From Candidatus Poribacteria bacterium (GTDB taxonomy: Bacteria > Poribacteria > WGA-4E > WGA-3G): a stretch of DNA of 64,000 nt. Position 1 is the stretch's first letter. Every line of letters begins with the position of its first letter. The DNA is taken from assembly GCA_965262955.1 (NCBI GenBank), contig CBDHGE010000001.1, forward strand, positions 3,103,637 through 3,167,636, in the 5' to 3' direction. Both the position numbers and the translations under genes were made by a program. Positions 2,965 to 40,559 of this stretch are shown here, piece after piece. Below the pieces are notes generated by a model that worked only from the letters and a program-made list of their open reading frames with translations, ran no database searches and was not told the DNA's origin.

Positions 2965-3173
2965 TGGTCTTCCCGGTTAGGATGTCTTTGTAATAATGGT
3001 GGTCGACAACGCCTTGATGTAAGTGCAGAACGGAAAATCCAGTTGAACGAATATGATTTCAATTGCTCTAACTATCGCTTTAAACACGTTCCGAGTGCCA
3101 CTCAGAGAGTAAACATCTACTATATCATGTTATGCCAATTGCGTTAATTTATCAAGTCTATTTTATTGGATCA

Positions 3174-3219
3174 TTTAGTTTTCCAATAATTTACATCCGG
3201 ACGCCCGAACTTGTTCGGG
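3174..3219 (+). repeat. Interspersed repeat family A, partial copy (3' core tttagttttccaataatttacatccggacgCCCGAACttGTTCGGG with terminal palindrome)
   Basis: Near-identical to 30600..30644 and 40505..40559. The CCCGAAC/GTTCGGG arms are perfect inverted repeats. Confidence 0.6.
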
Positions 3220-3272
3220 GTAAGGCGCGTGAACCCTAACAAGGATGTAATTCAAAGAATGGATTTAGTCTA

Positions 3273-9915: not shown

Positions 9916-10974
9916 ATGGAACCCGTAAAAGTGGGTGTGATTGGGTGTGGTGTCATCGGAAGCAGACATCTCAGTATTGCCTCGGATGCACCGCACATTG
10001 AGTTGGTCGCTGCGGCAGACCTGATTGAGGCGAACAGAACCACTGCTGCTGAACGCTTCAATCCACCCAAAATGTATACAAACGACATTGACCTGCTTGA
10101 TGACGATGAAGTTGAAGCAGTTGTCTTGGCATTTCCAACGCAGTACCGGACTGAGGTAGCCTTACGGGCGTTTGAGAGAGGTAAGCATGTTCTGATTGAA
10201 AAACCGATCGCCATGAACGCTGCTGAAGTTGAGAAACTCATCGCTGCGCGAGGTGATTTAGTCTCAGGATGCTGCTCATCCCGAAAGCGTTTTACACCAT
10301 CCGCGCAGCTCGCAACGCAACTGATTACCACTGGTGGTTTGGGCGAGCTGCGGACCGTCTACTGCCGCGCTATCATAGGAGCAAGGGAAAAACCGGATAC
10401 ACCGCGCCCTGCTTGGCGATTAATCAAGGCACTCAACGGAGGCGGCATCCTCGTTAACTGGGGATGTTACGATCTTGATTATCTACTCGGCATTACAGGC
10501 TGGAACCTCAAACCGCAAACTGTATTTGCCCAGACGTGGACCGTGCCTCAAGTCTTTAAATCGCACATCGCTCCCGGTTCCGATGCCGAAACGCACTACA
10601 CCGCACTCATCCGATGCGAAGGCGATATTGTTCTAAGCGTGGAACGAGGCGAGTTTATGACAATGCATTCGCATGCAGATTGGGAAATTATCGGCACTGA
10701 AGGCTCTCTTAAACTAAATATGCAGGATGGAAAACCGGACAGCGTCATCCACAATCGCACGACTACAGAAGGCGGCGTAGAGTCTACATCCCTCTCTGAC
10801 GCAGATGAAACGACTGAGGCACACCATAGCACGCCGTTGTCCGATTTCGCTGCCGCTATCCGAGAAAAACGACAACCCTCAACGAGTTTGGAAAAAGCCC
10901 TTGTTGTTCAGAAAATAACCGATGCTATTTACACTTCCGCAGAGACAGGAAAAGCTGTGGAGATAGGAGAATGA
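9916..10974 (+). CDS. Gfo/Idh/MocA-family NAD(P)-dependent oxidoreductase
   Basis: VKVGVIGCGVIGSRHL Rossmann motif, EKPIAMN, C-terminal alpha/beta domain. Start moved to ATG 9916 (AAAGGA RBS). The ORF track start 9847 adds 23 non-conserved residues. Confidence 0.85.
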   Translation: MEPVKVGVIGCGVIGSRHLSIASDAPHIELVAAADLIEANRTTAAERFNPPKMYTNDIDLLDDDEVEAVVLAFPTQYRTEVALRAFERGKHVLIEKPIAMNAAEVEKLIAARGDLVSGCCSSRKRFTPSAQLATQLITTGGLGELRTVYCRAIIGAREKPDTPRPAWRLIKALNGGGILVNWGCYDLDYLLGITGWNLKPQTVFAQTWTVPQVFKSHIAPGSDAETHYTALIRCEGDIVLSVERGEFMTMHSHADWEIIGTEGSLKLNMQDGKPDSVIHNRTTTEGGVESTSLSDADETTEAHHSTPLSDFAAAIREKRQPSTSLEKALVVQKITDAIYTSAETGKAVEIGE

Positions 10975-15600: not shown

Positions 15601-16473
15601 TCAGTCCTTAGCGGGTGGAAACGGTTTCACAGGTTCATTAATTTGATTTCCTCTTGGGATAGGTTCCGGTGGAAATTGCGTGAAAATCTCACCATTCTTC
15701 ATCGCCCATCGGGCGTTGGGGAAGAAGCGTTTGTTCCTCCCAGCAATCTCTGGATTTGTCCAAACGCCAGCAACGGCAACACGACTCTGCTCACTTTTGT
15801 TTGGTGGACTGTAGTGCCACATATTACTGTGCCAAAAGACAACGTCTCCAGTCCCTAATTCAATATGGCGTACACCGTGCTTTTCGATCATCTCCTGAAC
15901 GGCTTTGCGTGGCAATTCACCGTGAATACTGTCTGGGTATAGGACGTGTTCGATAATCTCGGTTTTGTGACTGCTCGGTATAAACTGCATGCATCCGTTT
16001 TCGCGAGTTGCAGGTTCAAGTGCTACCCAGAAATTGAGAGGTTCAGTATCGCCATCTCGCCAGAGTCCGTTGTCTTGGTGCCACGGGGTTGCAGCACCTG
16101 TGCGCGCCGGTTTGAGGAAGCTACTATTGAATTTCACAATCACGTCGTCTCCCAAAAAATAGCGGGCAATGTTCAGCATGGCAGGACCGGTATGGATATT
16201 GTGCCATATCAGCGGAGATTGAACACAGAAATTAGCGAGTTTACGGTAGCGTGCGATGCGTCCTTGCGGTGAGTCCTCCATCGGGTTCATTGGATCGAAA
16301 TCGGCAAACTCGCCAGGGTTGGGCAGCATAAGCACGTTGCGAATGACGCCGCGGAGTTGTGCTGCCAAATCTTCTGAGATAACATTGCGCTCAATAAAAT
16401 AGCCTTCACTCTCATATCGCGCTTTTTGTGCAGCGGTTGGTTGCCAGTTTCGCATGAAAATGTTTCCAGTCAT
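15601..16473 (-). CDS. Phytanoyl-CoA dioxygenase (PhyH) family Fe(II)/2OG oxygenase, tandem copy A
   Basis: WHQDNGLWRDG...FWVALEPATRENGCMQFIPSSHK...VFWHSNMWHYSPPN (HxD...H facial triad). About 88% identical to 16511..17422. Likely true start is M7 (16455), by alignment with the paralog. Confidence 0.85.
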   Translation of the reverse strand: MTGNIFMRNWQPTAAQKARYESEGYFIERNVISEDLAAQLRGVIRNVLMLPNPGEFADFDPMNPMEDSPQGRIARYRKLANFCVQSPLIWHNIHTGPAMLNIARYFLGDDVIVKFNSSFLKPARTGAATPWHQDNGLWRDGDTEPLNFWVALEPATRENGCMQFIPSSHKTEIIEHVLYPDSIHGELPRKAVQEMIEKHGVRHIELGTGDVVFWHSNMWHYSPPNKSEQSRVAVAGVWTNPEIAGRNKRFFPNARWAMKNGEIFTQFPPEPIPRGNQINEPVKPFPPAKD

Positions 16474-16510
16474 TTAGACAACAACGTCTCTTTTCTTCGA
16501 TGATATAAGA

Positions 16511-17422
16511 TTAGTAGCCCTTAGCGGATGGGAACGGCTTCGGTGCTTTAGCAGTTTGATGTTCCATCTGGACAGCTTCCGGTGGAAATTGTGTGCACAC
16601 CTCACCGTTTTTCATCGCCCATCGGAAGTGTCCCCAGAAGCGTTTACTAATCTTGGTGATCTCTGGATTTGTCCAGACACCGGCAACGGCAACACGGCTC
16701 TTCTCACTCCGATTGGGTGGGCTATAATGCCACATATTACTGTGCCAAAAGACAACGTCTCCGGTACCTAACTCGATGTGATGTACACCGTGCTTTTCTA
16801 TCATCTTCCGAACCTCCTCACGCGGAAGTTCGCCGTGGATGCTATCTGGGTATAACACGTGTTCAATAATCTCAGTTTTATGGCTGCCGGGTATAAACTG
16901 CATGCATCCATTTTCTCGGGTTGCTGGCTCAAGCGGCGTCCAAAAATTGAAAGGTTCAGTTTCACCATCTCGCCAGAGTCCGTTGTCTTGATGCCACGGG
17001 GTCGCGGCACCAGTACGCGCTGGTTTAAGGAAGCAACTATTAAACTTCATGATGATATCGTCGCCAAGGAAATAACGGGCGATGTTGAGAAGGGCAGGAC
17101 CCGCAAAGGTGTTGTGCCATATCAATGGGGCTTGGACACAAAAGTTGTTAAGTTTACGGTAGCGTGCAATGCGTCCTTGTGGTGAGTCTTCCATTGGATC
17201 CATGGGATCGAAATCAACAAACTCACCCGGGTTGGGCAGCATAAGAACATTCCGAATGACACCACGGAGTTGTGCTGCCAAATCTTCTGAAATAACATTA
17301 CGAAGGATAAAATAACCTTCGTCCTCATATTGTGCTTTTTGTGCAGGCGTTGGTTCCCATCGTTCCATTGTTAATTTCCTTTGCTTCTTTGTGGGGCTGA
17401 TGCGCTTGCGATGCCTACCCAT
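16511..17422 (-). CDS. Phytanoyl-CoA dioxygenase (PhyH) family Fe(II)/2OG oxygenase, tandem copy B
   Basis: Same motifs as copy A. Probable start is MERWEPT at 17368 (AAGGA RBS). The ORF track's 17422 start adds a basic N-extension. Confidence 0.85.
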   Translation of the reverse strand: MGRHRKRISPTKKQRKLTMERWEPTPAQKAQYEDEGYFILRNVISEDLAAQLRGVIRNVLMLPNPGEFVDFDPMDPMEDSPQGRIARYRKLNNFCVQAPLIWHNTFAGPALLNIARYFLGDDIIMKFNSCFLKPARTGAATPWHQDNGLWRDGETEPFNFWTPLEPATRENGCMQFIPGSHKTEIIEHVLYPDSIHGELPREEVRKMIEKHGVHHIELGTGDVVFWHSNMWHYSPPNRSEKSRVAVAGVWTNPEITKISKRFWGHFRWAMKNGEVCTQFPPEAVQMEHQTAKAPKPFPSAKGY

Positions 17423-18425: not shown

Positions 18426-19178
18426 GTGAATTGGAAAATGCTGACGCAAGAAATGGTAGCCGATGTTCCATCAGATCCAGGGGTTTACTTCTTTCGCGGA
18501 GTTACAGGGACAATCCTTTATATCGGCAAAGCGAAATGTTTGCGAAAACGGGTACGTTCCTATCTCCATAAGGTAAAAAAACGCCCAAGCAAAATCAAAC
18601 GACTTATTCGGTGGACGACAGGTGTTCGATATCAGGTGTGTCGCTCCGAACAGGAAGCACTCTTCTTAGAGTCGAGGTTAATCCAAGAACATCAGCCGAG
18701 TTATAATACGGCTATGAAGTATGGGCGGCAGTCGTGGTATATTCGGATAGATGTTGGGGACGCATTTCCCCAGCTTGAGCGTGTATCAGAGACACAACCC
18801 GATGACGCGCGGTATTTCGGTCCCCTGTCGAGTCGGCGATGGACGGATGAGGCAATTGATGTTTTACAGCGGATTTTTCCGGTACGCACATGTGAGGGCG
18901 AAATTACACCTACGCCAGGGTTTCGTGCCTGTTTTCAGTATGATTTGAAACGTTGTAATGCACCGTGCGCAGCACTGATTACAAGCAAACTCTATAAAGA
19001 AACGATAACGGATATTGTTAATCTGTTGGATGGCGAGTACGAAGAAGTACAGACGAGTCTGGTTGCAAGACGGGATAATGCGGCGGAGGCACTGCAATTT
19101 GAGCGTGCCGCTGCGTTTCACAAACAACTCCAACGGATTCAGAAAGTGTTTACTTTCCTTGATGTGCATCGGAGGTAA
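18426..19178 (+). CDS. GIY-YIG nuclease resembling the N-terminal half of UvrC (GIY-YIG, Cys-rich region and UvrB-interacting UVR domain). Lacks the C-terminal RNase-H-like/HhH half.
   Basis: PGVYFFRGVTGTILYIGKAKCLRKRVRSY (GIY-YIG), YFGPL...IFPVRTCE, CFQYDLKRCNAPC, UVR-like helix LQFERAAAFHKQLQRIQKV. 250 aa versus about 600 for full UvrC. GTG start as called. Confidence 0.7.
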   Translation: MNWKMLTQEMVADVPSDPGVYFFRGVTGTILYIGKAKCLRKRVRSYLHKVKKRPSKIKRLIRWTTGVRYQVCRSEQEALFLESRLIQEHQPSYNTAMKYGRQSWYIRIDVGDAFPQLERVSETQPDDARYFGPLSSRRWTDEAIDVLQRIFPVRTCEGEITPTPGFRACFQYDLKRCNAPCAALITSKLYKETITDIVNLLDGEYEEVQTSLVARRDNAAEALQFERAAAFHKQLQRIQKVFTFLDVHRR

Positions 19179-19182
19179 CCGA

Positions 19183-19539
19183 GTGACAACAGAGAAGACA
19201 ACAAAAGAGATTCTTGGTGGACCCAATGGAACTGCACGTTGTCGTTGTGGTCGACTCCGCTATCCGCGTTATTCCTTGTGTCCCAAATGTTATTACGAAC
19301 GATCTGAACCCTCTCCAAATCCCAAGAAATTGTCCCGTGCCGATCTCCTGAAGATGCAAGCTACAAAACCGATGCCGCTTTCTGATCGACAGGAGCGGAT
19401 CCAATTCTTGGAAAAACGATATGGGGCACAATTGCGGGGACAGGACATCCGTTTTATCAAAACCTCCGAGTCTAAAACCCCCGCATTGATTCGGGGGATA
19501 CAGACTCGCCCTTGTGAATTAGACCACAGTGTGATGTAA
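19183..19539 (+). CDS. Hypothetical small Cys-rich (zinc-ribbon-like) protein
   Basis: GTG at 19183 with GGAGG 7 nt upstream (overlapping the TAA of the upstream gene). CRCGRLRYPRYSLCPKCYYER motif. The ORF track's 19015 start overlaps the upstream gene. No recognisable family. Confidence 0.35.
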   Translation: MTTEKTTKEILGGPNGTARCRCGRLRYPRYSLCPKCYYERSEPSPNPKKLSRADLLKMQATKPMPLSDRQERIQFLEKRYGAQLRGQDIRFIKTSESKTPALIRGIQTRPCELDHSVM

Positions 19540-19560
19540 AAAAAGTTGTTGATTTTTTTT

Positions 19561-20960
19561 TGTAGGTTCTGCTATACTCTTTAGACCAGTTGGCAGACAT
19601 ATCGAGCGTTGTCGCAAGGCAACGTGTCTGCCTACCCACTCGATAGGGGTTAACGGCTGGTAACTGGTACATCTTGAGAACCTACACATACAAAGTTCAG
19701 CACCATAAACGCAACCGTCATTTGCGTTCGGATACGCGTATCATCTCGCAAGTGCATAATCACTTCATAGCGTTGACGCGTCGGCACTACCGGATTTACG
19801 GATGCTGCGCAGGCTATAAGCGTGCGACCTATAACCGATTGAGTCGGCACTTGACGAAGTTGAAGAAACTCGAAAGATATGCTCACTGGCGTATCCCATA
19901 TGCTTGGGCGTTGCAAGAGTGCTTGAAACGTATTGAGTTGGGGTATCTCAACTTCTTTGAGAAGCGTGCCAAGCGTCCGCCGAAGTTCAAGTCGTGGCGA
20001 AACTACCGCTCTATGACCTTCAACGGCAATCAGGTCAAGGTTGAAACCGTATTTGAGAAGGAACGCCACAAGAGACGTGTGCCCGTTGCGAAAATACGCC
20101 TTGCTGGACGGTGGTATCGGTTCTGGTATTCTCGTGAGATAAAAGGTAATATCAAACGTATAACCGCCAAACGTGACGCACTCGGTGATTGGTATATCAG
20201 TATCACAACAGATTATGAAGGACTTACCCCCGAACCCAAGACGGGTGATGCTGCAGGGTTCGACTATGGCAACAAGACCTTTCTGACCTGTTCGGATGGC
20301 ACGAAATACGAATCGCCTGAGTTCTATAAGCAGTCTGCCAAGAAGGTAAAACAAGCCAATCGGGAGTTGTCTCGTAAGGTTAGAGGTAGCAACAATCGCA
20401 AACGTGCGAACAAGCACTATGCCCGAACCCATCGCAAGATTCAGAGACAGCGCGAAGATCACCACTGGAAACTTGCTTTGGAACTTGTCGGCAAGTTTGA
20501 CCTCTGTTTCTTTGAGGACTTGAACCTTGACGGCATGAAACGACTTTGGGGACGCAAGGTCTCTGACCTCGCCTTTGGTGAGTTCCTTGAGAAAATCCGA
20601 TGGCAAGCGAAAAAACGGGGAAAGCGCGTTGAGACGATAGGACGTTGGGAGGCGACAACGCCAGTTTGCCACAACTGCGGGCAAAAGCACCTCTTCATAG
20701 ATTTGAGTGTTCGCGATTGGTTCTGCCATAGTTGTAAAATCCATCATGACCGCGACATAAATGCGGCGATAAATATCCTCAAGGTTGGGGCATCAACCTT
20801 TGGAGGAGAGGGTATCAGACTTGCGATCGCAAGCAACCCTTGTTGATACCAGAATCCACCCGAAACGGGGGACACTTAGAATCCCCCGAATTCATTCGGG
20901 GGAGTATGTCAAGAAGAATTCGCAGCTGTATGCCCTATCAGAGCAGGCGGGCTATCGGCG
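19561..20960 (+). mobile_element. IS200/IS605-family, TnpB-only (IS1341-like) insertion element: structured left end, tnpB, and 3' hairpin-rich right end (probable omega/reRNA scaffold)
   Basis: Nested inverted repeats at 19563..19685 (GTAGGTTCT...AGAACCTAC, GACCAGTTGG...AACTGGTAC, GGCAGACA...TGTCTGCC). tnpB at 19674..20846. Downstream hairpins cccgaaacggggg and cccccgaattcattcggggg at 20855..20915. Exact boundaries not determinable from one copy. Confidence 0.6.
19674..20846 (+). CDS. tnpB: TnpB (IS605 OrfB) RuvC-like RNA-guided nuclease
   Basis: N-terminus MRTYTYKVQHHKRNRHL (TnpB-typical), RuvC blocks, C-terminal zinc finger CHNCGQKHLFIDLSVRDWFCHSCKIHHDRDINAAINI. Confidence 0.9.
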   Translation: MRTYTYKVQHHKRNRHLRSDTRIISQVHNHFIALTRRHYRIYGCCAGYKRATYNRLSRHLTKLKKLERYAHWRIPYAWALQECLKRIELGYLNFFEKRAKRPPKFKSWRNYRSMTFNGNQVKVETVFEKERHKRRVPVAKIRLAGRWYRFWYSREIKGNIKRITAKRDALGDWYISITTDYEGLTPEPKTGDAAGFDYGNKTFLTCSDGTKYESPEFYKQSAKKVKQANRELSRKVRGSNNRKRANKHYARTHRKIQRQREDHHWKLALELVGKFDLCFFEDLNLDGMKRLWGRKVSDLAFGEFLEKIRWQAKKRGKRVETIGRWEATTPVCHNCGQKHLFIDLSVRDWFCHSCKIHHDRDINAAINILKVGASTFGGEGIRLAIASNPC

Positions 20961-21074
20961 TCGATGAATTTATATATCAGACGCGTAATTTGGCATTTGT
21001 GAAAAAAAATGTTGCGAAAAAAAAGCATATCCGTTAAAATATTATAGACAACTAATTATTCAAGGAGGTTACCC

Positions 21075-21470
21075 ATGCATATCGCGAGATTATCGCTCAT
21101 TTGCCTTGTTGCCCTTGTATTCATGGTAGGGTGTGGTATGCTCGGAGAGAAAGCAGAGATGTCCGAGACTGCAGCCACTTCTGATTCCGCGGGAAAAACC
21201 GTAATGGAATCTGAAGCCAAAGACATGGCGAAATCCATGGAAAAAGCCGCCGTTGAAGAGATTACACTGAATGTCACAGGCATGACATGAGGCGCGTGTA
21301 CCAGTAAAGTGCAGGATGCACTTAGCAAGGTCACAGGCGTTTCCGAAGTGGTGAGCGTCTCTTCAGATACCAATACGGCTGTTGTGAAGGTTGAGAAGGG
21401 TAAAGTTACCACTGATGCCCTTACCGAAGCAGTTTCAGGTGCTGGTTTTAGTGCCGAAGCCGCTCAATAA
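21075..21470 (+). CDS. Selenocysteine-containing heavy-metal-associated (HMA; CopZ/MerP-like) lipoprotein, copy 1. UGA at 21288..21290 read as Sec.
   Basis: ORF track stops at TGA after ...EEITLNVTGMT. Continuing in frame gives U-GACTSKVQDALSKVTGVSEVVSVSSDTNTAVVKVEKGKVTTDALTEAVSGAGFSAEAAQ* (TAA 21468..21470), i.e. the HMA G-M-T-C-x-x-C site with U as first ligand. Lipobox FMVGCG. AAGGAGG RBS. SECIS-like hairpin 16 nt 3' of the UGA. Confidence 0.7.
21307..21323 (+). promoter_or_regulatory. Candidate SECIS hairpin for HMA-Sec copy 1 (AAGUGCA-GGA-UGCACUU)
   Basis: 7-bp perfect stem with GGA apical loop, read directly. Confidence 0.5.
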
Positions 21471-21584: not shown

Positions 21585-21944
21585 ATGCGTCACTTAAACG
21601 TGAGGGTAGTATTTGTCTGCCTTGCGGCACTTCTACTTGTGATTGCGTGTGCAGACACGCAAAAGAAGACAACTGAAGCACCAAGCCAAACGGCAGAAAC
21701 ACCAAGTCAAACGGCAGAGGTCGCCGTTGAGGAAGTGACACTCGCCGTGACTGGCATGACATGAGGTGCGTGTACCAGCAAAGTGCAGGATGCACTCACA
21801 CAGGTTACCGGTGTCTCTGAGGTTGTCAGTGTTTCTATGGAAGAGAATAAGGCTGTCGTAAAGATTGAGAAGGGCAAGGTTGAAAAAGACGCGCTCGTGA
21901 AGGCGGTTACAGACGTCGGATTTAGCGCACAAGTTGCCAACTAA
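21585..21944 (+). CDS. Selenocysteine-containing HMA (CopZ/MerP-like) lipoprotein, copy 2. UGA at 21762..21764 read as Sec.
   Basis: ATG 21585 (AAGAGG RBS): MRHLNVRVVFVCLAALLLVIACADTQKK...EEVTLAVTGMT-U-GACTSKVQDALTQVTGVSEVVSVSMEENKAVVKIEKGKVEKDALVKAVTDVGFSAQVAN* (TAA 21942..21944). Not in the ORF track at all. Same UGA position and same downstream hairpin (AGUGCA-GGA-UGCACU, 21782..21796) as copy 1. Confidence 0.7.
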
Positions 21945-22074: not shown

Positions 22075-22983
22075 CTACTGCTTCTTCGCGTAAAGCGGGT
22101 CGTCAAGCAGAGATTGCACTTCGTAGATTGAACCTTTTAGTTCTGCGTAAGGTTCCGGCATACGAACAGGTGCAGCGACCATACGTGGCTCATTCGTCGA
22201 TTCGCCACGGATGATGCAGTTGTTGAAAGTCTCCCAATCTGGAATGCCTTTTAGGGGCCAGGCATCTACCGCACAGTACTGGGCAAGCATTAATCGGCGC
22301 GGTTTGCTGGAGGTGTTCGGGGCAGAACCGTGCAACGCTCGGACATGATGGATCGTGATCCCACCCGCCTTCAACTCAACAGGGACAGCACCTTCTGGTG
22401 TGAAATTGGGATCTGTTACTGCACCAATAAACGCTCCGTTCTGATGGTGATCTAAAGTCGGTCCCTTGTGGGAGCCAGGAAGTATCATCAATGCACCGTT
22501 TTCCACGGTCATATCATCAATCACCACACCGACTGCGAGTAAATCGTCGTTAGTGTGCGGGTAGAATGCCCAGTCCTGATGCCATTCAACAGGACTCCCA
22601 AACTCCGGATACTTCATGTTCAATTTATGTCCATTATACCGAACCCCCGGTCCAATGAGCTGCTCCACAATGTCCAAGATTCTGGGATGTCGTAAAGCGT
22701 AATCGTAAACGACGTGGTGTAGTCCCGGATTTTTGATGCGTCGGACGCGTGGATTAGCAGGAGAATGCCCTGGCTCGAGATCAAAGATGTCAGTATGTTC
22801 CGTAACTTCTCTCGATTTTTCGACAAATTCATTGGTGACGCGTTGGAGATCCGCGACCTCTTCTGCTGTTAGGACTGCCTCAACGCCGAGATAACCGTTT
22901 TCACCATAAAAGTCAAGTTGTTCTTGCGTGAGCATTGGTTCGTCAACTCCTCTTAGCGAAATGATACTGTTATTATACGTCAA
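22075..22983 (-). CDS. PhyH-family Fe(II)/2OG dioxygenase
   Basis: WHQDWAFYPHTNDD...ALMILPGSHKGP...ITIHHVRALHGSAPN. Confidence 0.85.
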   Translation of the reverse strand: MTYNNSIISLRGVDEPMLTQEQLDFYGENGYLGVEAVLTAEEVADLQRVTNEFVEKSREVTEHTDIFDLEPGHSPANPRVRRIKNPGLHHVVYDYALRHPRILDIVEQLIGPGVRYNGHKLNMKYPEFGSPVEWHQDWAFYPHTNDDLLAVGVVIDDMTVENGALMILPGSHKGPTLDHHQNGAFIGAVTDPNFTPEGAVPVELKAGGITIHHVRALHGSAPNTSSKPRRLMLAQYCAVDAWPLKGIPDWETFNNCIIRGESTNEPRMVAAPVRMPEPYAELKGSIYEVQSLLDDPLYAKKQ

Positions 22984-30319: not shown

Positions 30320-30534
30320 TTTCAAATCCCTTCCTTCTCTCCTATTGTACGCAATCAACCAGATTCGCATTGCTTTTCTGTTACTAAATAAGCAATTTCC
30401 ATGCCAAATTTAAAATAGGGGACAGAACGGGAAATATAGTGGATTCAGTGGCGAAACGTAAGTTTCGACTGCACAAAATAGGGCAAATAAGGAGATAACT
30501 GCACGGATTTGGGCAGAGGCAGATAGGAAAAAAC

Positions 30535-30644
30535 GTGAGTTCGAGAAAGAAAACTTGTACCGTAAACTGTTAGTTTGCAATACTTCTGGGTAGGTTCATT
30601 CAGTTTTCTAATAATTTATATCTGGACGCCCGAACTTGTTCGGG
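30535..30644 (+). repeat. Interspersed repeat family A, full copy (about 110 bp ending in CCCGAACttGTTCGGG)
   Basis: gtgagttcgagaaagaaaacttgtaccgtaaactgttagtttgc...ttttctaataatttatatctggacgcccgaacttgttcggg. About 85-90% identical to 40439..40559. Confidence 0.6.
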
Positions 30645-30768
30645 ATAAATGAAAAAAGATGTCCCTGTCGCGGACGTCCAGATTTAGCCTGTGAATAGAC
30701 TGGATTTAGTCTGGGATTAGACTAAATTTTGCCCACACGCGGCACAATTTGTCTTTGCTTTACATTAA

Positions 30769-40388: not shown

Positions 40389-40438
40389 ATATCATGACTC
40401 TTTTCACATGTAGAAAATCGGCAATTTGATAAAGAAAT

Positions 40439-40559
40439 GTGAGTTCGAGAAAGAGCACTTGTACCGTAAACTTTTAGTTTGCGTGCCTCTGAGTAGAATA
40501 GTTCAGCTTTCTAATAATTTACATCCGGATGCCCGAATGGATGCCCGAACTTGTTCGGG
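40439..40559 (+). repeat. Interspersed repeat family A, full copy with internal duplication of the gcccgaa unit
   Basis: gtgagttcgagaaagagcacttgtaccgtaaacttttagtttgc...tttctaataatttacatccggatgcccgaatggatgcccgaacttgttcggg. Confidence 0.6.

Follow-up and report, generated by a model that had tools for sequence, protein, structure and literature searches.

A pseudoknotted leader RNA upstream of tnpB in an IS1341-type mobile element of Candidatus Poribacteria

The IS1341-type element, its ends and its insertion site

A 64-kb stretch of contig CBDHGE010000001.1 from Candidatus Poribacteria (here called the window, to which all coordinates refer unless another locus is named) carries a single copy of a 1,455-bp element of the insertion sequence (IS) 1341 type (positions 19458 to 20912, plus strand). 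Its tnpB gene (19674 to 20846, plus strand; 390 amino acids, TTG start) is preceded by a pseudoknotted leader RNA of about 85 nucleotides (19585 to 19669, plus strand), which probably gates the translation of TnpB. As a transposon, the element is ordinary, with every testable property of an IS1341-group element and of a TnpB-omegaRNA locus. The description of the locus as an IS1341-like TnpB-only element, given in an initial annotation of the sequence, was borne out by the TnpB family matches, the hairpin ends, and the insertion at a TTAT motif.

The tnpB product, encoded by an intact open reading frame (ORF), matches Pfam OrfB_IS605 (1.9e-21) and Cas12f1-like_TNB (2.7e-18) as well as NCBIfam guided_TnpB (219.9 bits against a cutoff of 100), and structure homology aligns it with the solved TnpB of ISDra2 (8bf8/8exa) over residues 26 to 371 (E 1.8e-40). 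In the alignment to the top structure match, 9yyg, the RuvC motifs FDYG, FEDLN, and HDRDINAAINI are kept opposite VDLG, VEDLN, and HDRDENAALNI, respectively, and both CxxC pairs of the zinc finger (CHNC...CHSC) are present. Judged by these motifs, the TnpB nuclease is intact and keeps its RuvC catalytic triad (D-E-D), as the initial annotation had proposed. The RuvC D-E-D site and the zinc ribbon are features it has in common with ISDra2 TnpB, the characterized reference, and the IS1341 group. An exact-protein look-up found no identical protein on record.

The boundaries of the element were determined by blastn and MAFFT comparison of the flanks of about 70 copies from Poribacteria genomes and of an uninterrupted site in one relative. 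The relatives came from a scan of one genome per species that gave 226 relatives and was narrowed to the best 80 loci (here and below, L numbers denote individual loci); 79 of these 80 are titled Candidatus or uncultured Poribacteria and one is an unclassified "uncultured bacterium" metagenome-assembled genome. Many genomes have several copies (at least 12 in OZ244616.1), and the copies lie in unrelated flanks. Similarity between copies stops on the left at a TTAT-C junction (window positions 19454 to 19458) and on the right after ...GAGTATGTCAA at 20912, the longer conserved end being ...GGGGGAGTATGTCAA. At the empty site in the relative L081, TTTAT is directly followed by GAAGAATTC, with no ambiguous bases at either junction; since TTTAT runs straight into GAAG there, C19458 is the first base of the element, and the copy comparison and the empty site together place the element at 19458 to 20912. 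It was inserted directly 3' of TTTAT (19453 to 19457, plus strand; core TTAT, 19454 to 19457), the target site and presumed target-adjacent motif (TAM), without target duplication, as seen from the lack of duplicated bases relative to the L081 site. The left flank reads TTAT and then C in 25 of 27 aligned copies. Further copies had been expected to define the ends of the element and a TTAC-like target; they did define the ends, and the target is TTAT instead. TTAT also differs from the targets of ISDra2 (TTGAT) and IS608 (TTAC).

There are no terminal inverted repeats. As in other elements of the IS200/IS605 type, including the IS1341 group, both ends carry subterminal imperfect palindromes, and insertion 3' of a short T-rich motif without duplication is likewise as in the IS1341 group. 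The left-end palindrome (19467 to 19508, plus strand) has an outer stem CGAGTCT/AGACTCG and an inner stem CCCCCG/CGGGGG, and its position and architecture are kept in all clades, including those with TnpB relatives at 52% identity; the region from 19459 to 19560 as a whole is conserved even where TnpB identity is only 52%. The right-end hairpin TCCCCCGAAT/ATTCGGGGGA (20882 to 20903, plus strand), a perfect 10-bp palindrome followed by the conserved end, is kept in all copies compared and has the same CCCC...GGGG design as its left-end counterpart. A possible solo left end at position 10782 on the minus strand was dropped, as it has no such hairpin.

The insertion interrupts a conserved zinc-ribbon gene of 109 codons, in the same orientation and 17 codons before its end: the 5' part lies at 19183 to 19457 (plus strand) and the last 17 codons are now at 20913 to 20967. 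Most of the 75 homologues of this gene are 109 amino acids long, and six intact sequences that were read end in ...RFMKNSQLYALSEQAGYRRR, while the reading frame of the window copy continues into the element and stops at 19539. The element had initially been placed just after a small zinc-ribbon ORF; the homologues and the empty site in L081 put it inside that gene.

No tnpA was detected in the element or in the 64-kb window, as the initial annotation had also noted. In contrast, a Y1 tnpA stands directly upstream of tnpB in loci L028, L031, L033 to L037, L040, and L049 from other Poribacteria genomes, overlapping tnpB in L028. The encoded IS200/IS605 transposase is 137 or 138 amino acids long (127.9 bits against a cutoff of 55 for the L028 protein). 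These tnpA-bearing sister elements share with the window element its TTAT-C junction and its type of left-end hairpin, and in OZ240244.1 the left ends of tnpA-bearing and TnpB-only elements are nearly identical. The common left ends and the empty site thus identify the window copy as a recently mobile, non-autonomous element of the IS200/IS605 family, IS1341 type, from a lineage with multiple copies in Candidatus Poribacteria. It is very unlikely that the host has instead domesticated tnpB as an RNA-guided regulator or nuclease and that the gene has ceased to belong to a mobile element. The lack of tnpA within 64 kb and the single copy in the window would agree with domestication, but both element ends are intact and have their hairpins, the insertion is polymorphic with respect to the relative's genome and disrupts a conserved gene, the sister copies are multi-copy in unrelated flanks, and the catalytic residues are kept. 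Of the two possibilities left by the initial annotation, a domesticated nuclease and a non-autonomous IS, only the second therefore stands.

The 3' end of tnpB forms part of a structured RNA that extends to the right end of the element, as in ISDra2 and the IS1341 group. The RNAalifold consensus of 21 diverse copies has four helices in 20782 to 20851, mostly inside the coding sequence (20782-88/20793-99, 20801-03/20849-51, 20808-13/20836-41, and 20820-24/20829-33). In the alignment, 98% of cells are paired, against 36 to 56% in slid controls, and compensatory change is seen in 10 pairs; on four of five measures, the observed value is matched by no shuffle. One G-U pair is invariant and a second occurs in 19 of the 21 sequences, which points to an RNA of the tnpB strand. 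This RNA fits a right-end element RNA (reRNA), or omegaRNA, scaffold that closes with the right-end hairpin, in agreement with the earlier proposal. The predicted scaffold is given as 20782 to 20912 (plus strand), 20782 being no mapped 5' limit. As it closes with the right-end hairpin at the element boundary, the guide would start at 20913 rather than extend from 20920 as first suggested. By analogy with published TnpB work, and for an assumed length of 16 to 20 nucleotides, the presumed guide is host DNA, GAAGAATTCGCAGCTGTATG (20913 to 20932, plus strand).

Of the two 3' hairpins noted initially, only the one at 20882 to 20903 is present in all copies. The other, cccgaaacggggg (20859 to 20871, plus strand), is optional: about half of the aligned copies have a hairpin there, differing in sequence, and the rest have none. 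It resembles a degenerated second copy of the module formed by AGAATC and the right-end hairpin. A pseudoknot within the omegaRNA (window GGTATCA/TGATACC) was rejected, as it is not kept in other copies.

If the element behaves as published work on the IS200/IS605 family leads one to expect, Y1 TnpA from autonomous sister elements would mobilize it as single-stranded DNA, recognizing the matching hairpins at 19467 to 19508 and 20882 to 20903. TnpB would load the omegaRNA, composed of the scaffold overlapping the 3' end of tnpB and a guide of host DNA from 20913 onward, and would cut TTAT-flanked empty sites, with the result that the element is retained.

A pseudoknotted RNA between promoter and tnpB

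Where the sister elements have tnpA, the window element has an internal promoter and a structured leader, and in this it differs from the IS1341 group. The putative promoter is sigma70-like (19549 to 19578, plus strand; consensus scan) and consists of TTGATT, an 18-nucleotide spacer, and a TG-extended TATACT; a TTGACA-like/TATAAT-like pair is found at the equivalent position in nearly all copies. In all types, transcription is predicted to start exactly at the base that opens the leader's P1 helix. The nested stems that the initial annotation had reported at 19563 to 19685 exist: the segment from 19555 to 19700 folds at -49.4 kcal/mol (z = -3.98), and none of 200 shuffles folds as well. The stretch from 19563 to 19685 is internal, 105 to 230 nucleotides inside the element, and lies downstream of the conserved promoter.

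The leader is built from four helices and a pseudoknot. P1 (19585-19591 with 19655-19661) encloses P2 (19592-19599 with 19625-19632) and P3 (19607-19613 with 19618-19624, loop GCAA), which stack via an asymmetric internal loop, and a small hairpin, P4 (19635-19637 with 19646-19648). The loop of P4 pairs with the P2/P3 internal loop, forming the pseudoknot (19600-19606 with 19639-19645). Two leader sequence types have this one architecture. In the window type (alignment A3, 16 sequences), 92% of cells are paired, 19 pairs are changed on both sides, and 7 of 7 pseudoknot pairs covary, with slid controls at 29 to 42%. In the second type (alignment A2, 23 sequences), the corresponding values are 95%, 14 pairs, and 5 of 6 pseudoknot pairs, with slid controls at 30 to 48%. 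The observed pairing or covariation was reached by 0 of 500 shuffles in either type. A mixed MAFFT alignment, A1, put the two types out of register and was not used for pair counts. In the window type, one P3 pair is U-G in 11 of the 16 sequences, and G-U pairs (18) far outnumber A-C mismatches (2).

A covariance model of the second type, R1, was run over 860 kb of Poribacteria DNA and gave a single match in each locus, always a short distance upstream of tnpB; in a pattern scan of metagenomes leader matches occurred only in tnpB contexts. R1 missed the window copy with default filters and scored 10.7 bits at the correct place with filters off; because it transfers poorly to the window, the window type was analyzed on its own alignment. 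Leader type and TnpB relatedness are discordant, the window type being found in L058 (57% TnpB identity) and another subtype in L004 (81%), which suggests that elements have swapped 5' modules and tnpB genes with one another.

The leader is unusual. Nothing in Rfam 15 overlaps it at E values up to 10, and at the gathering score there is no leader or omegaRNA match in the window or in 13 related loci, where the only Rfam matches, one tRNA and one thiamine pyrophosphate (TPP) riboswitch, lie elsewhere in the loci. No description of such a leader was found in the literature searched, the coverage of which was incomplete and makes this weak evidence of novelty. The TPP riboswitch (72.4 bits; L070:6370-6470) lies about 200 nucleotides beyond the right end of a sister element, which places that copy just upstream of a riboswitch-controlled gene. 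The leader and the omegaRNA core are alike in having a stem, an asymmetric internal loop, and a tetraloop hairpin; neither shared sequence nor conserved complementarity was found between them, and mimicry of the omegaRNA core by the leader was left as speculation.

These data leave hardly any room for the initial view of the nested stems at 19563 to 19685 as the left end of an IS200/IS605 element, that is, a DNA structure recognized by TnpA. The stems are real and fold better than shuffles, and elements of this family do have structured ends. However, the boundary is at 19458, and a separate hairpin at 19467 to 19508, previously assigned to the neighboring ORF, is the one that matches the right-end hairpin. 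The structure at 19563 to 19685, moreover, is downstream of a conserved promoter, includes a pseudoknot and a conserved U-G pair, and occupies the slot that tnpA fills in autonomous sisters. The leader is also most improbable as a self-cleaving ribozyme that trims read-through transcripts. HDV-like (hepatitis delta virus-like) ribozymes occupy the 5' edge of retrotransposon transcripts, and the leader recalls them in being compact, pseudoknotted, and placed at the start of a transcript from a mobile element, but it matches no ribozyme family, has no block of invariant core nucleotides, and is directly preceded by the element's own promoter.

A duplicated P1 strand at the tnpB initiation region

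In nearly every leader-bearing clade, the 3' strand of P1 is repeated downstream as an exact copy of 6 to 12 nucleotides. This second copy lies over the start codon or the ribosome-binding site, in most clades over the start codon (from -4). Three clades, the window's among them, have it at -14 to -5; in the window itself it occupies -10 to -5 (19664 to 19669, plus strand), the alternative helix using ACTGGT from 19663 on. The repeat exists as about 11 different words, e.g., CACCATGT, CACGATGT, CATGATGT, TGTAATGC, AACAATGC, AACTATGC, and AATCATGC, and the 5' strand of P1 complements each of them. In L050, the word TGTCCTGC is found in both places and the 5' strand is GCAGGACA; here the start codon itself is CTG, having changed in step with its two partner segments. 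In metagenome contig LXNJ01010419.1 (L085:1690-2220), a degenerate element copy has lost the stretch between the two P1 3'-strand copies, such that P1 runs directly into the start codon; its tnpB is internally deleted and matches residues 266 to 388 only.

When the alternative pairings are forced, they differ by about 1 to 5 kcal/mol and the lower state varies by copy; the two window folds are at -35.2 and -34.6 kcal/mol, in an energy model that leaves out the pseudoknot, so that the balance of the two states may shift. Such near-isoenergetic pairings suggest a translational switch. In the tnpA-bearing sisters, a plain hairpin at the equivalent place sequesters the ribosome-binding site or the start codon of tnpA.

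The mechanism that we propose starts from the slot that holds tnpA in the sister elements, here taken up by the promoter and by a leader of about 85 nucleotides from the first transcribed base. Pairing of the P1 5' strand with the adjacent 3' strand would leave the initiation region free, and pairing of the same 5' strand with the second copy would block initiation. The 5' strand would hence be an anti-start sequence, beside which the structured core would present a decoy partner, and the leader a bistable translational gate for TnpB, toggling between translatable and blocked states. A mobile, non-autonomous IS1341-type element whose leader acts as such a gate is, in our judgment, the best explanation of the whole and has a somewhat better than even chance of being correct.

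Parts of this design are familiar from other transposons and operators. A stem-loop in the 5' untranslated region of IS200 tnpA hides the Shine-Dalgarno sequence, and IS10 and IS50 subject read-through transcripts to "fold-back inhibition." As in these, the 5' sequence of the window leader is complementary to the initiation region, and the tnpA-bearing Poribacteria sisters carry exactly such a simple hairpin as IS200 does. The window leader differs from all three in that a core of four helices and a pseudoknot keeps a decoy partner close to its anti-start strand, and in that the controlled gene is tnpB and not the transposase gene. Bistable translational operators and ON-type riboswitches, e.g., the rpsO/S15 pseudoknot operator and the add adenine riboswitch, resemble the window leader in having a core closed by P1, one strand of which can alternatively occlude the initiation region, and two states of near-equal energy. 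In contrast to them, the leader has no Rfam sequence or model match, its competitor strand is an exact duplicate of the start region, and it has few conserved unpaired nucleotides and no known effector.

An outermost stem may add to this control. Its 5' arm (GTAGGTTCT; 19562 to 19570, plus strand) lies in the promoter spacer and its 3' arm (AGAACCTAC; 19677 to 19685, plus strand) in codons 2 to 4 of tnpB, as identified by inverted repeat and fold. Other clades have different complementary pairs at the equivalent places, such as TGTGGT/ACCACA and GTATTTGTAG/CTACAAATAC. Since the 5' arm is between the -35 and -10 boxes, it is present only in transcripts that enter from upstream, and such read-in transcripts are likely, the element being in sense orientation within a host operon. 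The geometry is that of the IS10/IS50 fold-back, and the outer stem would in the same manner silence transcripts reading in from the host operon; for read-through silencing, the evidence is suggestive only.

Several observations weigh against the proposed gate or parts of it, in addition to the omission of the pseudoknot from the energy model. The promoter, the transcription start, and the translational control are predictions. In the second leader type, G-U pairs (19) and A-C mismatches (18) are nearly equal, so the evidence for the strand comes mainly from position and from one conserved U-G pair. The leader is dispensable, as indicated by a TnpB-only clade without it (L053 and L074). The junctions hold few unpaired nucleotides, poorly conserved between the two types. 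The outer stem is absent in four clades, and although cognate arms pair better than non-cognate arms (-11.8 versus -10.3 kcal/mol; permutation p = 6e-4), this comparison is confounded by relatedness. Finally, the statement that tnpA is absent extends as far as the window and ends there.

Given the few conserved junction nucleotides, the leader may be a passive tuner or a 5'-end stabilizer and not a regulated switch. Its role would in that case be to shield the 5' end of the mRNA from decay or to insulate TnpB expression from the insertion context, with no switching involved. P1 begins at the predicted first transcribed base in all types, and one clade manages without the leader, both of which would be in keeping with a passive role. 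We nonetheless regard this alternative as unlikely, if worth keeping in view, as it leaves unexplained why the non-coding bases just upstream of the start track the 5' and proximal 3' strands through about 11 variants, and why there should be an elaborate covarying pseudoknot.

What might set the proposed gate is a separate matter. A covarying conserved core and mutually exclusive pairings that could act as an expression platform, the generic marks of a riboswitch, are both present. A small-molecule riboswitch, in which a ligand would stabilize the pseudoknotted core and P1, free the start codon, and turn TnpB on, could account for the aptamer-like compact pseudoknotted fold and for the P1/anti-start platform. 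It is nevertheless improbable: the junctions contain few unpaired nucleotides, with little conservation from one type to the other, which argues against a metabolite pocket, the leader is confined to one transposon lineage in one phylum, and it has no Rfam riboswitch match even at E values up to 10. The few conserved junction nucleotides leave a protein effector, kinetic control, or plain tuning as options. More broadly, the leader could represent a new class of effector-responsive RNA switch that binds TnpB, a host protein, or a metabolite and times the production of the nuclease, a possibility that we put forward only tentatively and consider unlikely on present evidence.

Genomic neighborhood and implications

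Immediately upstream of the interrupted gene is a stand-alone homologue of the N-terminal half of UvrC, with GIY-YIG and UVR domains assigned by Pfam (18426 to 19178, plus strand), which is not part of the element. It matches uvrC model residues 3 to 230 at 1.5e-59 and Cho more weakly (1.7e-19). It had been taken for a truncated protein; its length is in fact natural, as the homologue beside the empty site in L081 has 246 amino acids and the same domains. The GIY-YIG/UVR protein (about 250 amino acids) and the 109-amino-acid zinc-ribbon protein, for which there is no family assignment, form a conserved two-gene module in Poribacteria, and the pair is present in L081 as well.

Downstream of the element, two tandem paralogous ORFs (21075 to 21470 and 21585 to 21944, plus strand) have a heavy-metal-associated motif of the GMTCxxC type, recognized by eye. 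Both contain an in-frame TGA exactly at the position of the first Cys of the motif (GMT-TGA-GAC), and an identical hairpin, GUGCAGGAUGCAC, lies 17 nucleotides downstream in each. They are candidates for selenocysteine proteins. The corresponding genes called in a relative end at the TGA and yield proteins of 70 and 59 amino acids.

Elsewhere in the window, a 56-nucleotide repeat with a CCCGAAC..GTTCGGG hairpin occurs in three copies (3168 to 3223, 30593 to 30648, and 40496 to 40551), two of which are preceded by a second repeat of 51 nucleotides (30528 to 30578 and 40432 to 40482); the 56-nucleotide sequence could be either an intergenic repeat of small size or a miniature mobile element. Two tandem paralogues of the PhyH family (phytanoyl-CoA dioxygenase-like), 77% identical over 300 nucleotides, are encoded on the minus strand at 15601 to 17422, and a third is found at 22075 to 22983.

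The transposon itself is routine, and the leader is the part that has no match in what was searched. Cas12 descends from TnpB, which now also serves as a compact genome-editing tool; nothing published on control of TnpB dosage by the transposon was found in the literature searched. The clean natural pair of insertion and empty site defines the TTAT target, the presumed TAM, and the guide for an uncharacterized TnpB from a sponge symbiont. The leader lineage, for its part, provides a natural, compact (about 85 nucleotides), and phylogenetically well-supported RNA element located exactly at the translation start of TnpB, with a design that would amount to a start-region decoy held by a pseudoknot. 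Should the leader prove responsive to an effector, it would constitute a dedicated layer of TnpB control that evolved in the slot vacated by tnpA.

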